Below, one piece after another: positions 15,747-19,445 of a stretch of DNA of 64,000 nt. The notes beneath the pieces are model-generated. The model was not told the origin of the DNA and did no database searches. It saw nothing but the letters and a program-made list of their open reading frames with translations. The DNA is from Chloroflexota bacterium. GTDB taxonomy: Bacteria > Chloroflexota > Limnocylindria > Limnocylindrales > CSP1-4. A program made the position numbers and the translations under genes. Positions within the stretch are counted from its first letter, which is position 1, and the number at the start of each line of letters is the position of its first letter. Where the stretch lies: contig JAZJZX010000014.1 in the NCBI GenBank assembly GCA_040389445.1, positions 37,287 to 101,286 of the forward strand, given 5' to 3'.

Positions 15747-16172
15747 CTAGTCGCACGTCGGGAACACCTTCGGTCCATCGTGCCGAAGGAGCTGCAACTG
15801 CCTGCCGGTCGAGGCCTGGGTGAAGATCGCCGTCGTCGCATCGGTGAGCCGGAACGTGCCGGATGAGCCATCGAAGTCGACGGAGTTCGGTGCCACGCCC
15901 ACTGCGTCCCAGAAACTGCCGTCCACGTCGATCGGGCTGCGAATTCCGCAGTGCGGCATGTCGTAGGCATAGTCGACACCGAGGACGGCTCCCCGCGGCG
16001 AGATGGGTGCCAGGGTGACGGTGCCGATGCCGCGCTCGATGACCGGCTGATTGGCGATGGCCTCCGGTCCCGGCGTGGGCACCCGGTTGGCCCAGGCAAC
16101 CGTCGGAGGAGACGTGCTGAACGCGCAGCCGCCAACGATCAGGGCGACGATCGCGCCGGTGACCACCTTCAT
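15747..16172 (-). CDS. Hypothetical lipoprotein
   Basis: GAGGG RBS; signal peptide with lipobox IVGGC; PHCGI motif and a C-terminal Cys. Confidence 0.75.
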   Translation of the reverse strand: MKVVTGAIVALIVGGCAFSTSPPTVAWANRVPTPGPEAIANQPVIERGIGTVTLAPISPRGAVLGVDYAYDMPHCGIRSPIDVDGSFWDAVGVAPNSVDFDGSSGTFRLTDATTAIFTQASTGRQLQLLRHDGPKVFPTCD

Positions 16173-16401
16173 CAGCGTCCCTCGTTCGGTTCAGGCCGAT
16201 CGCAACAGATGTGCGCGCTGGACTGAGGGTATCGCGCTGGATTACCTGCGCGCCGAACGATCGGCTACCGGCCCGGCGCGTGGATGACGCCCGCCTGCCA
16301 GCGGCGCCCGTCTGACGCAACGGGTTCCCGGGGCGACCACGGGGTCAAATGGTGTCCTGATGCCCGGATGGATGGATTGCTAGCCGCGGTTGGTGCGTGA
16401 A

Positions 16402-16524
16402 TCAGTGAGCGAAGGGCGTCCCGTTGCCGTCGGCGAAGACGGCGGCAGCCGACAGGAGTGCGAGTGCGGTGCCAAGGATCCAGGAAACGACGATCGGACG
16501 CGAGGTTCGAATGCGACGAAACAT
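16402..16524 (-). CDS. Putative secreted signalling pro-peptide (40 aa), absent from the ORF track
   Basis: Translated by hand: MFRRIRTSRPIVVSWILGTALALLSAAAVFADGNGTPFAH*. AAAGGGA RBS; basic n-region, hydrophobic h-region, V-F-A cleavage site; dedicated promoter. Confidence 0.8.
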   Translation of the reverse strand: MFRRIRTSRPIVVSWILGTALALLSAAAVFADGNGTPFAH

Positions 16525-16599
16525 GTGACGGTCCCTTTCAGGCTGGGGGTTCCGCCCGGGCTCAAGGACACTGATCGCACTGGTGATGCGACCAGCGAG

Positions 16600-16628
16600 A
16601 TGCTACGGTTCGCGCATGGGAAAGTCAA
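16600..16628 (-). promoter_or_regulatory. sigma70-type promoter for the peptide gene
   Basis: Minus strand TTGACT (16628-16623)-N17-TAGCAT (16605-16600). Confidence 0.75.
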
Positions 16629-16966
16629 GTATTGCTAAACAGTTGCGAGCCGGGGCCGGGTCGGCCGCCGCCCTGGAAGTCGGACGAAGGGTGCGCGAGC
16701 GTCGTCTCGCGGTCGGGATGACACAGACGGAACTCGCGACGCCCCTGTCGAGGGCCTTCGTTTCCGCCGTCGAGAAGGGGCGCACCCTCCCGTCGCTCGG
16801 TGCGCTGTGGCTGTTCGCGGCCCGACTCGGCACCGGCGTCGGCAGCCTGGTCGATGGTGTCAACGGTGTTGGTACCGAGGAGTACACTGCCGTGCATGAC
16901 AGACAACACCGTCACCTCGAACCTCGTGGCGACTCGCACACCGCAACGGCGTCGGATCGTCGTTGA
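16616..16966 (+). CDS. Small XRE-family HTH protein
   Basis: VGRRVRERRLAVGMTQTELA..SRAFVSAVEKGRTLPSL; -10 TACGGT 6 nt before ATG. Confidence 0.75.
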   Translation: MGKSSIAKQLRAGAGSAAALEVGRRVRERRLAVGMTQTELATPLSRAFVSAVEKGRTLPSLGALWLFAARLGTGVGSLVDGVNGVGTEEYTAVHDRQHRHLEPRGDSHTATASDRR

Positions 16967-18227
16967 CGACTCGGCCCTGGCCAACCGGATCGGCCATCGT
17001 CTGCGGCGGGCTCGCCTGGCGGCCAATCTCACCCAGCAGCAGCTGGCGGAGGGGAGGTACACCAAGGCCTACATCAGCGCCCTCGAGACCGGCCACAGCA
17101 AGCCTTCCATGGCGGCGCTCAACTTTCTTGCCGACCGCCTCGGGATGGCGGCCAGCCGGTTTCTCGATGACGAGCCGGCGTCATGGCGCCGCCTCGAGGT
17201 GGATCTGGAGCTGGCGTCGGGTCGCTGGGAACGCGCCGCCGACGGGTATCGCGATCTGCTCGCGCAACCAACGCCGCGCGAAACGCGGGCCGAGTTGCTG
17301 CTCGGCCTGTCCGAGGCGCTTGCCGGCCTCGACCAGGGCGCCGACGCGGCCGCAGCCGGCGCCGAAGCCGCGGCGATCTTCGCGTCGGTTGGGCGCGATG
17401 CCGACGCGGCCATCGCGCGATATTGGCTCGCCGCCGCGGAGTACGCCCAGGGGAACAGCGTCGAAGCGGAGTCGCTCCTGCGGGAGATCCTCGCCGGCGT
17501 CCGAGGCGGCCTCCGGGTGGAGCCGGATTTCGAGCTCCGGGTGATCATGGCCCTGTCGAGCACGGCGTCGCGGGACGGCCGGCACGACGTCGCCCTTGCC
17601 TACCTCGAGGAGGTCCGAGGCCTGGCCGAATCCCTCGACGACCATCGGCGAGCAACCTTCCTGTTCGATCTGTCCTACAGCTACCGCGAGACCGGCGACT
17701 ACGAAGGCGCGATCCGGACCGGCATCGCGAGCCTGACGCTGTTCCGGGCGTCGGCATTCGAGCTTGGCACCGCATCACTGGAGAACGACCTCGCGCTCTC
17801 GTTCCTTGCCGTGGGCAACTTCTCCAAGGCCGACGAGTTCGCGGCCCATTCCCAGGCACGGTTCGAGAAGCTGGACGACCGCCGTCAGCTTGCCCATGTG
17901 CTCGAGACCCGCGCCCGCATCGCCCTCGCCAACGGCGACTACGCCGGCTCACGTGAGCTCGCGAGTGCCGCCCTCGCGACCGCCGAGGAAACCCACAACG
18001 ACAGGGCACGGGTGAGCTCGCTCCTCGCGCTGGCCAGGGTCCATCGGGCGCTCGGGGAACCGAACGCCGCGGCCCCGCTCTATGAGCAGGCGGTGGACCT
18101 TGCGCGCGGATCGTCGAGACCGGGCCTGATCCGGGACGCGATCGGTGAGTGGGCCGACGTCCTGACGGAAACCGGCGAGCACGCGCGCGCCGCCGTCCTT
18201 CTCCGTGAGGCGCTCCGCGCCGTCTGA
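16896..18227 (+). CDS. XRE-HTH plus TPR transcriptional regulator (RRNPP/NprR-like architecture, 443 aa)
   Basis: N-terminal IGHRLRRARLAANLTQQQLAEGRYTKAYISALETG..PS, followed by about 8-9 helical TPR-like repeats (e.g. LSYSYRETGDYEGAI, ENDLALSFLAVGNFSKA, LARVHRALGEPNAAAPLYEQA). Confidence 0.88.
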   Translation: MTDNTVTSNLVATRTPQRRRIVVDDSALANRIGHRLRRARLAANLTQQQLAEGRYTKAYISALETGHSKPSMAALNFLADRLGMAASRFLDDEPASWRRLEVDLELASGRWERAADGYRDLLAQPTPRETRAELLLGLSEALAGLDQGADAAAAGAEAAAIFASVGRDADAAIARYWLAAAEYAQGNSVEAESLLREILAGVRGGLRVEPDFELRVIMALSSTASRDGRHDVALAYLEEVRGLAESLDDHRRATFLFDLSYSYRETGDYEGAIRTGIASLTLFRASAFELGTASLENDLALSFLAVGNFSKADEFAAHSQARFEKLDDRRQLAHVLETRARIALANGDYAGSRELASAALATAEETHNDRARVSSLLALARVHRALGEPNAAAPLYEQAVDLARGSSRPGLIRDAIGEWADVLTETGEHARAAVLLREALRAV

Positions 18228-18359
18228 GTCCCCGCGCAGCGCGCGTTCCGACCAGGAGGCCGTGCGATTGCCCTTCGCGTGCAGTACAGTAATGCTTGAC
18301 CAGCAGCCAGGTGGAGCGTCTGGGAGGGCACGATCAGTACCGCGCCGACACCCAATTCG

Positions 18360-19445
18360 TTGCGGCCACAGGAACTCGCCGAACGGCAGCTCGCCTACCT
18401 GCTCGAATCGCCGGACCTGCTGCATCCCGTGTTCCAACCGATCCTCTCGCTGGTCAGCGGGACCGTCGTCGGGCACGAGGGGTTCAGCCGCTTCGAGCTC
18501 GAGCCGGCTCGGCCCCCCAATCTCTGGTTCGCCGAGGCGACTCGCGTCGGCATGGGTGCCGACCTCCAGGCGATGGCGATACGGCGGATTCTGGGGGTCG
18601 CCGCACAGGCAGGTCTCCCGCCGGGGACGTTCCTTTCCCTGAACGTCAGTCCGCAGTTCCTGTCCCACCCCGCCGTCGCGGCTGCGATTGCGACGGCCGA
18701 AGAATCGCGCCTGGTGCTGGAACTCACGGAAGAGGAGGAGGTTCTCGACTACCGTGCCTTGCGGCGGGCCATGACCCCGTATCTTCGGAGCGGCGTGCGC
18801 TTCGCTGTGGACGATGCCGGGGCCGGCTTCGCATCGATGCGCCATGTGATCGAGCTGCAGCCGGCGTTCGTCAAGCTCGACGCCTATCTGATCCGGGGCA
18901 TGCGCAGTCGCCAGACGCTCCGAGCGTTCCTCCGGGCGATCAATGGATTCACCGTGGAGATCGGAGCCACGCTCGTCGCCGAGGGAGTGGAGACCGCGAG
19001 TGACCTCGGCGTTCTGAAGGAGACCGGGTTCCCGCTCCTGGCCCAGGGCTTCGCGATCGCTCGCCCGGCGGCAGCGTGGCCCGGCGTGCGTGTCGCCGTG
19101 ACCAAGGCGTGGCGTCGCGAGGCTGCGCCGATGGCTCCGCCATCGGTCGGGAATGGACGGCCCGGTGTGACCCAGTCCGCTCCGATCCCGATCGAGAACG
19201 CGGTGAATATCGGCGCCGCGCTGGGACCAGGCCTGCGCCGGGCCGGAATCGAGGACCTTGACACTCTCCGCAGGCTCGGAGCCGTTGAAGGGTGGCGACG
19301 CCTCCGAGCCATCGATCCCGACCTTGCCACGGATTGGGCCGTCGCCGCTCTCGAAGGCGCCATCCGCGGGACCCGCTGGGGTTCCGTCCCGAGCGCCGAG
19401 CGCCGCCGGCTCATCGCCACGATCGCGAAGATCGGAGAGGGGTAG
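18360..19445 (+). CDS. EAL-domain c-di-GMP phosphodiesterase with C-terminal TfoX_C-like domain
   Basis: FQPI..EGF, SLNVS, ELTE, DDAGAG, VKLD, AEGVET, QGF; tail NIG..LRRAGI..LRRLGAVE.W..ALEGAI.G.RW. Start uncertain. Confidence 0.85.
   Translation: MRPQELAERQLAYLLESPDLLHPVFQPILSLVSGTVVGHEGFSRFELEPARPPNLWFAEATRVGMGADLQAMAIRRILGVAAQAGLPPGTFLSLNVSPQFLSHPAVAAAIATAEESRLVLELTEEEEVLDYRALRRAMTPYLRSGVRFAVDDAGAGFASMRHVIELQPAFVKLDAYLIRGMRSRQTLRAFLRAINGFTVEIGATLVAEGVETASDLGVLKETGFPLLAQGFAIARPAAAWPGVRVAVTKAWRREAAPMAPPSVGNGRPGVTQSAPIPIENAVNIGAALGPGLRRAGIEDLDTLRRLGAVEGWRRLRAIDPDLATDWAVAALEGAIRGTRWGSVPSAERRRLIATIAKIGEG

Follow-up and report, generated by a model that had tools for sequence, protein, structure and literature searches.

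In this work, we describe a small gene cassette found on a 64,000-nucleotide (nt) stretch of DNA, referred to below as the window, from contig JAZJZX010000014.1 of a Chloroflexota bacterium. It contains a gene for a 40-amino-acid (aa) putative propeptide plus stop codon (positions 16402-16524, minus strand; the micro-ORF, from open reading frame) and, on the opposite strand, the gene of a 443-aa regulator (16896-18227, plus strand; the receptor), which joins an N-terminal helix-turn-helix (HTH) domain of the XRE type to an array of tetratricopeptide repeats (TPRs). The genes, the peptide promoter and a conserved 17-nt box exist, and across Chloroflexota the gene for the peptide and that for the receptor show both linkage and co-occurrence. 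Throughout different classes and gene orders, the one constant partner of the micro-ORF is the HTH-TPR regulator. On these grounds we consider it rather likely that the cassette is a signaling unit composed of a secreted peptide and a cytoplasmic receptor, RRNPP-like in its working, autoregulated through the box and having an EAL-domain phosphodiesterase as its output.

An initial annotation of this DNA had proposed a chromosomal RRNPP-like peptide-signaling system, a suggestion that now draws its support from comparative data, namely linkage, co-occurrence and occurrence in other classes. The structural features it named, i.e. the 40-aa minus-strand ORF, the promoter TTGACT-N17-TAGCAT, the AAAGGGA ribosome-binding site, the signal-peptide layout, the HTH and TPR parts of the 443-aa protein and the Asn of an ENDLA motif, were all recovered. 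It had placed the peptide ORF divergently to the 443-aa gene, which is right as to strand and wrong as to direct adjacency, since a 116-aa XRE-family ORF lies between the two. What it had missed were this small XRE gene and the conserved 17-nt box.

Relatives of the receptor were collected using one genome per species, which gave 445 confirmed relatives, and 80 loci were kept (loci, genomes and families are cited by working labels beginning with L, G and f). From the peptides of 9 loci we built a profile and ran it over all 10,375 ORFs that the 80 loci contain in six frames. It matched 63 loci at E<0.05, in every case on the strand opposite to that of the receptor and immediately upstream of its gene. 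At least two of the 80 loci duplicate sequences already used for training (L033 and L036 have the same peptides as L006 and L007). Seven further loci (L057, L092, L101, L103, L104, L109 and L090) yielded ORFs of the same design in relaxed scans. Micro-peptide ORFs beside receptor homologues were what the initial annotation had made its proposal depend on, and in total 70 of the 80 loci carry one. The loci span 44-80% receptor identity, and the frame, length, Shine-Dalgarno sequence, start and stop of the peptide gene are kept in these 70. Five of the other ten (L075, L096, L099, L106 and L107) have less than 400 nt of upstream DNA, too little to judge.

The same picture emerged among close relatives. 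A full or fragmentary receptor orthologue is present in 9 of 36 same-genus genomes and in none of 24 genomes of the sister family. The micro-ORF was detected by tblastn in 8 of the 9 same-genus loci, divergent and upstream of the receptor, and each of these eight starts after GGAGG, AAGGAG or AAAGGG and has its stop codon directly after a DGGxxPxxH tail. When the peptide profile was run over 61 related genomes at E<=1e-5, it found nine genomes, with one match each, always beside the receptor. Thus a peptide match exists in 9 of 10 genomes bearing a full receptor versus 0 of 51 without receptor, a comparison that is not a statistical test, as related genomes are not independent. The exception among the bearers is G019 (L005/L032, 75% receptor identity), which has an intact receptor but neither the peptide gene nor the 5' part of the small XRE gene, making it a natural orphan receptor. 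In the window's own genome (3.04 Mb, 46 contigs, 93% complete) the profile has one strong match, at the 16402-16524 locus, and also weakly matches stretches of larger open frames.

Conservation of this kind indicates that the micro-ORF is a real, conserved gene. Across 58 peptide genes, which are too diverged for a clean ratio of nonsynonymous to synonymous substitution rates (dN/dS), change at third codon positions is the higher (0.60-0.61 versus 0.42-0.53). The AAAGGGA ribosome-binding site lies upstream of the ATG in the window, and in relatives GGAGG, AAGGAG or AAAGGG is found 6-9 nt 5' of the peptide start. The 5' untranslated region of the peptide gene is about 69 nt long and has a strong Shine-Dalgarno sequence, unlike the receptor and small XRE genes.

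The distribution of the receptor was followed with a receptor profile at E<=1e-30 over 401 Chloroflexota genomes. It was found in families f1 (10 of 22 genomes), f3 (17 of 17), f4 (2 of 2), f18 (6 of 8) and f23 (5 of 12), and in none of the other 77 families; 11 genomes hold two copies. Two of these families, f18 and f23, come from other classes, and receptor identity to the window's protein is 24-31% there, one short local match excepted. Even so distant, all eight f18 loci examined have a micro-ORF of 25-30 aa with a Shine-Dalgarno sequence, divergent in seven and co-directional in one, and in f23 a co-directional upstream micro-ORF is present in three of four loci. Among second paralogues, a micro-ORF accompanies 8 of 9, five times divergent and three times convergent and downstream. 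The pair stays adjacent while the gene order changes, which is what a functional partnership predicts.

Relatives of the receptor locus bear the label Chloroflexota and in many cases, more narrowly, Candidatus Limnocylindria or Limnocylindrales, so that the occurrence in Bacillota or mobile elements that marks RRNPP systems is not seen here. Viral contigs gave 15 pattern matches to receptor relatives, none of which was confirmed, and plasmids gave no tblastn match at 1e-8; an origin from a mobile element was rejected on this basis. Clusters of HTH_3+TPR_12 proteins of similar size are listed for Actinomycetota and Dormibacterota (feature-based Atlas matches), and these might be systems of the same kind.

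The design of the peptide is consistent with export and cleavage. Residues 1-31 of the window's product look like a Sec-type signal peptide, with a basic n-region (MFRRIRTSR), a hydrophobic core (maximum Kyte-Doolittle mean over 19 residues, 2.22) and a V-F-A|D junction with small residues at -3 and -1, a layout of the sort expected of a Sec/signal peptidase I substrate; residues 32-40 form the tail DGNGTPFAH. The released 9-mer predicted from the conserved -3/-1 cleavage pattern, D32-H40, would be encoded by positions 16405-16431 (minus strand). The family's precursors measure 37-41 aa. Counted from the C-terminus in 63 peptide sequences, Ala occupies position -10 (residue -1 relative to the proposed cleavage) in 56 of 63, and position -12 (residue -3) is A, V, T or S in 62 of 63. 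The predicted first released residue, at position -9, is D in 27 and G in 24 of 63, and positions -8 to -6 are mostly Gly. The very C-terminus carries an aromatic/aliphatic-Pro-His/Arg/Lys motif: position -3 is F, Y, I, W or L in 59 of 63, position -2 is Pro in 52 of 63, and the last residue is H, R or K in 56 of 63. In a 58-row peptide alignment R9 and A31 are the sole columns at least 90% conserved, and of the N-terminal part the charge alone is conserved. Such a pattern fits a cut by signal peptidase I that releases a short peptide whose C-terminal motif matters.

Two precursor variants deserve separate mention. The 61-aa precursor of L100 (2527-2709, minus strand) has the tail unit DAGGAPWPK twice in tandem, and in the 54-aa precursor of L090 (2618-2854, minus strand) a pro-segment of ~18 residues separates the signal peptide from the terminal MPWPR. 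Both point to further processing, as is typical of processed pheromones. Since in L090 the tail unit comes after a pro-segment and in L100 it is doubled, the active signal of the window may be a shorter C-terminal fragment of the 9-mer. The genome encodes a signal peptidase I, and the Opp genes that the initial annotation had recommended looking for are represented by seven matches over the cut-off to the Opp-type binding protein SBP_bac_5. The capacity for Opp-type uptake is thus present.

Other tail types were noticed as well. The micro-ORFs of L092, L102, L103, L104, L118 and L123 belong to a tail class ...TVAACSNG(N/G/A)G(F/W)P(S), e.g. AACSNGNGFP, containing a lipobox-like V-A-A-C; these peptides may be processed as lipoprotein signal peptides or released Cys-first. 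Distant cassettes from other Chloroflexota classes (L143, L144, L146, L147 and L149) have Cys or Cys-Cys tails. Examples of Cys-containing distant tails are ADGHGGGCC and ADSVPCCH in f23 and ADSFPCGK in f18, which hints at disulfide or other modification in these lineages.

In the receptor, Pfam places the HTH at residues 32-84 (HTH_31, 6.6e-8; HTH_3, 1.9e-7) and the TPRs over residues ~156-406 (TPR_12, 7.7e-19, plus TPR_16, TPR_8, TPR_7, TPR_2 and others). The protein has no hydrophobic segment (Kyte-Doolittle maximum, 1.08) and so is cytoplasmic, and its TPR part, proposed here as the peptide-binding domain, has no paralogue in its own genome. In the alignment of 79 receptors the recognition-helix block RYTKA..SALE (R54-K57, S61-E64) is invariant, and the Asn of ENDLA, N297, is Asn in 70 of 79.

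A -10-like element, GTACACT, lies 7 nt 5' of the receptor ATG (16882-16888, plus strand), which implies a leaderless receptor mRNA. A TAnnnT element, mostly GTACACT, stands at the same distance before the receptor start in 77 of 80 loci, a count that is biased, as the choice of start favored such elements; the alignment nonetheless shows the block directly. Both the receptor and the small XRE starts have TAnnnT 6-7 nt upstream and no Shine-Dalgarno sequence, and from what is generally known of leaderless promoters their mRNAs are probably leaderless. A perfect 9-nt inverted repeat, ACGGTGTTG at 16863-16871 and CAACACCGT at 16904-16912, flanks the receptor -10 and start codon and may be an autoregulatory operator.

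The peptide promoter was found by consensus scan at 16600-16628 (minus strand), with the -35 TTGACT at 16628-16623, a 17-nt spacer and the -10 TAGCAT at 16605-16600. It is the sole sigma-70-like site within 16150-18450 (2.3 kb; 50 shuffles gave a mean of 0.1), and the TTGAC-N17-TAnnAT layout recurs when the intergenic regions of relatives are aligned (22 loci lacking the small XRE gene; the window and 36 loci having it). Overlapping and extending the -35 is the conserved 17-nt box GTCAAGTATTGCTAAAC (16624-16640, plus strand), a candidate regulator-binding site. The box was found in 56 of 80 loci by a pattern derived from those same loci. Searched in degenerate form with at most one mismatch, it has just two matches in the 3.04-Mb genome, the reversed-pattern control having none. 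The second copy, GTCAAGCATTACTGTAC (18284-18300, minus strand), is located between the receptor stop and the EAL gene, with TTGACC reading rightward on the plus strand, and is the sole conserved block in the receptor-EAL spacer (window, L030, L031, L034 and L035). The invariance of the recognition-helix block of the receptor matches the conservation of the box.

The small XRE-family HTH gene (16616-16966, plus strand; 116 aa; Pfam HTH_31 1.7e-7, HTH_3 2.4e-7) sits between the peptide ORF and the receptor, whose start it overlaps by 70 nt, and its product shares 41% identity with the HTH of the receptor. The gene occurs in 36 of the 58 loci with measured spacing and is absent from a 24-row clade and the basal clade. 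Where the gene is present its first codons are written over the 17-nt box, which is a DNA element, because it is still conserved in loci without the gene. A -10-like TACGGT (16604-16609) lies 6 nt before the small XRE ATG, so that the -10 elements of the peptide gene (16600-16605) and the small XRE gene overlap back to back. The small XRE protein could be a peptide-insensitive competitor or a second repressor.

Downstream of the receptor lies a 361-aa EAL + TfoX_C gene (18360-19445, plus strand, start codon provisional; Pfam EAL 4.3e-37, TfoX_C 1.1e-12), the product of which is probably a cyclic di-GMP (c-di-GMP) phosphodiesterase. Of the six EAL matches in the genome it is the single short stand-alone one. 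Of the 80 loci, 19 have a homologue no more than 3 kb from the cassette, and EAL is the commonest Pfam family among those listed for the immediate neighbors on both sides, being the immediate neighbor downstream of the receptor in 10 of 72 loci and beyond the micro-ORF in 8 of 72; in L042, L052, L061 and L062 the EAL gene comes after the micro-ORF and is read in the same direction. The EAL gene of the window is a likely regulated target of the cassette.

Taken together, these features suggest the following course of events. The 40-aa precursor would leave the cytoplasm through Sec and be cleaved after V-F-A31 by signal peptidase I, which would release DGNGTPFAH or a shorter C-terminal fragment. 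The peptide would build up outside the cell, be taken up by an Opp-type transporter and bind the TPR domain of the 443-aa regulator. Binding would alter the action of the regulator at the 17-nt box over the peptide -35, resulting in autoregulation, and through the same box upstream of the stand-alone EAL gene it would have an output on c-di-GMP. A second layer of control probably comes from the small XRE paralogue, whose transcription runs back-to-back with the peptide promoter.

Two observations bear on the binding step. In seven receptors the EN of ENDLA is changed to QR, and these are exactly the receptors whose peptide has the short tail QTPY[PS]H, a tail without the Gly-rich part; as the seven form one clade, they count as a single event. 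Complex prediction, with receptor and propeptide given as alignments, returned a median of 0.34 versus 0.00 for the best of three controls, with a partner predicted local distance difference test (pLDDT) value of at least 34 and runs agreeing in at least 5% of contacts, and was rated weak support. In this procedure 58 of 80 solved complexes reach the pass mark, as do 2 of 110 mismatched pairs; passes at 0.60 or under comprise 7 of the 80 solved complexes and both passing mismatches.

Several observations weigh against the signaling reading. The initial annotation had suggested looking for co-varying tails, and a tree-aware scan, underpowered with seven independent pairs, found no receptor column that tracks the last tail residue: the best column co-switched in 3.2 of 7 pairs (H versus R/K) among 622 column-by-residue tests. 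Relaxed scans revealed no peptide ORF in 5 of the 80 loci (L032, L073, L082, L084 and L085), and eight primary f3 copies and both f4 loci have none either, which means that the receptor can exist without the peptide. The hydrophobic stretch of about 22 residues could serve to anchor the product in the membrane instead of being a signal peptide that is cleaved off. The GC content at third codon positions (GC3) of the micro-ORF is 0.71 versus 0.81-0.85 in adjoining genes, and because composition supports it weakly, the case for the micro-ORF as a gene rests on conservation. No recognizable -10 lies 3' of the EAL-side box. As regards RRNPP membership, the models that the receptor matches are generic HTH and TPR ones, with no RRNPP-specific Pfam or NCBIfam model among them, and RNPP_C (PF18768) and Rgg_C (PF21259) have no match in the genome at E<=10. 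In a sequence profile search of the PDB the TPRs of kinesin light chain and PINS rank first; PlcR (E 1.9e-8), ComR and SinR match via the HTH, PlcR and ComR via the HTH only, and the matches via the TPRs, RapH (E 9.9e-8) and NprR (~9e-6, query residues 247-419), are weak.

The main alternative, in our estimate unlikely, is that the micro-ORF peptide is a regulated product of the HTH-TPR regulator and not its ligand, the TPRs sensing another protein or a small molecule and the peptide acting outside the cell or via a membrane kinase. A regulator and its main target gene would be expected to show linkage and co-occurrence just as well, and the outcome of the covariation scan, the receptors without peptide, the weak rating of the complex prediction and the occurrence of HisKA/HATPase_c among the neighbors (5 of 72 and 2 of 72) all accord with it. 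Kinases are, however, not consistent neighbors, while the TPR regulator is the sole constant partner in all classes and gene orders. The peptide never appeared in the 51 genomes without receptor, the short-tail class is where QR replaces EN in a TPR motif that otherwise hardly varies, and the complex score exceeds all three controls. It is also conceivable, and we regard it as quite improbable, that the 40-aa product acts in the membrane, either as a micro-protein that spans it once (N-in, C-out) and is not cleaved or as a small, hydrophobic, toxin-like peptide controlled by an XRE protein. The length of the hydrophobic stretch and the fact that the cleavage is predicted from sequence speak for this, and XRE-family proteins often pair with small toxic genes. 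Yet the best-conserved elements are the -1 Ala, the small -3 residue and the extracytoplasmic C-terminal motif, not the cytoplasmic N-terminal part; the pro-segment and tandem-tail precursors fit proteolytic release rather than an anchor, and a 430-aa TPR regulator is not a typical antitoxin.

A precursor of a ribosomally synthesized and post-translationally modified peptide (RiPP), with a C-terminal core modified at residues such as Cys, Pro or His and a regulator that controls a natural-product locus, seems very improbable to us. It would account for the Cys pairs in some of the distant tails quoted above, and the best NCBIfam match of the receptor TPR region is indeed a RiPP-associated TPR protein; at 38.8 bits this match is far under the cut-off of 1125 and reflects generic TPRs. 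The leader has the look of an ordinary Sec signal peptide and not of a RiPP leader, and among the Pfam families listed for the neighbors (72 loci on each side) there is no RiPP-modifying enzyme or dedicated exporter, that is, no radical-SAM, YcaO, lanthipeptide-synthetase or C39-peptidase/ATP-binding cassette (ABC) exporter family. Finally, the low GC3 would suit a chance open frame in high-GC intergenic DNA that is never translated, an idea we find scarcely credible: the retention of frame, of a length of 37-41 aa, and of the start, stop and Shine-Dalgarno sequence over 44-80% receptor identity already contradicts it, and genome-wide the profile is specific to this locus.

Returning to the preferred reading of a secreted peptide sensed by a cytoplasmic receptor, the cassette has the TPR array, the N-terminal XRE-type HTH and the adjoining gene for a predicted secreted propeptide that are features of RRNPP systems. 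We apply the term RRNPP-like to architecture and presumed mechanism, not to demonstrated common descent; because the receptor matches no RRNPP-specific model, the cassette is, as far as its sequence tells, an analogue rather than a family member. The nearest known counterpart is NprR/NprX of the Bacillus cereus group, likewise consisting of a regulator of ~420-440 aa, in which an XRE-type HTH at the N-terminus precedes a long TPR array, and of an adjoining gene for a Sec-type propeptide of about 40 aa with the signal in its C-terminal part. The present cassette differs by its occurrence in Chloroflexota, the extra small XRE gene, the leaderless receptor mRNA, the absence of an implied phosphatase role and of a match to an RRNPP-specific model, and also by a peptide gene that is divergent and upstream, whereas nprX is co-directional with nprR and downstream of it.

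The divergent peptide gene and a regulator site at the peptide promoter, which implies autoregulation, are shared with Rgg/SHP of streptococci, and the f18 peptides (25-30 aa, mostly hydrophobic, with a short C-terminal tail) are similar in size to the short hydrophobic peptides (SHPs). In contrast to that system, Rgg_C has no match in the genome, and the peptides of the window's family have a canonical A-x-A-type site suggesting signal peptidase I, while SHPs are processed via Eep/PptAB. The resemblance to PlcR/PapR and Rap/Phr, seen in the PlcR HTH and RapH TPR matches, is domain-level and generic and ranks below kinesin light chain and PINS; the aromatic/aliphatic-Pro-basic C-terminus differs from the PapR and Phr motifs, and the receptor has an HTH, unlike the Rap proteins, which are not known to have one. 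The tandem and pro-segment-bearing propeptides of L100 and L090 have parallels in RRNPPA systems, for which tandemly duplicated or pro-segment propeptides are reported (PMC11343458).

Two further genes were noticed near the cassette. In the clade devoid of the small XRE gene, a gene 80-260 nt downstream of the receptor and co-directional with it encodes a conserved protein of ~97 aa (L038:4516-4806, L040, L043, L045, L047, L058-L060, L070, L083, L087, L088 and L095). It contains the motifs LGPVPW.HDG and NRELWPLGYVA.LE, has no family match and may be another regulated gene. In the window itself, a 141-aa lipoprotein-like ORF with ...LIVGGC... at its N-terminus (15747-16172, minus strand) lies 230 nt downstream of the peptide gene; its product has no Pfam or NCBIfam match. 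It was excluded as a cassette part, since it accompanies the cassette in none of the 80 loci.

Chloroflexota are an abundant and mostly uncultured lineage of soil, peat and freshwater. Our search of the literature found nothing relevant on RRNPP in Chloroflexi, on which the supplementary lists of PMC10075063 and PMC9765709 might bear, and nothing on quorum sensing in Limnocylindria; RRNPP-related titles and abstracts describe no such system for Actinomycetota. According to the sections consulted, RRNPP_detector was applied to complete genomes of Firmicutes and viruses only (PMC10075063), a 2026 review presents RRNPP as a system of Gram-positive bacteria and Firmicutes (PMC13220807), and the consulted parts of PMC9765709 and PMC12700828 contain no mention of other phyla. 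Signaling by a re-imported peptide and a cytoplasmic receptor is treated in these texts as a Bacillota trait, and within their coverage the system reported here is found in a phylum for which none was described before.

We tentatively propose, at somewhat less than even confidence, that Chloroflexota possess their own widespread family of cytoplasmic peptide-pheromone receptors, spread over at least five families and several classes, present in two copies in some genomes, and either evolved independently of the RRNPP systems of Bacillota or sharing no more than a very remote relationship with these. A short C-terminal peptide with aromatic/aliphatic-Pro-His/Arg/Lys at its end would be the signal and c-di-GMP turnover the output, by means of a stand-alone EAL phosphodiesterase that shares the operator box of the peptide promoter. 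If this is true, a conserved Chloroflexota analogue would mean that this communication logic is much wider than thought, and would suggest a link between peptide signaling and c-di-GMP control. It would also offer a defined peptide motif and operator box, which could be tested with synthetic peptide and purified protein, no culture of the organism being needed.

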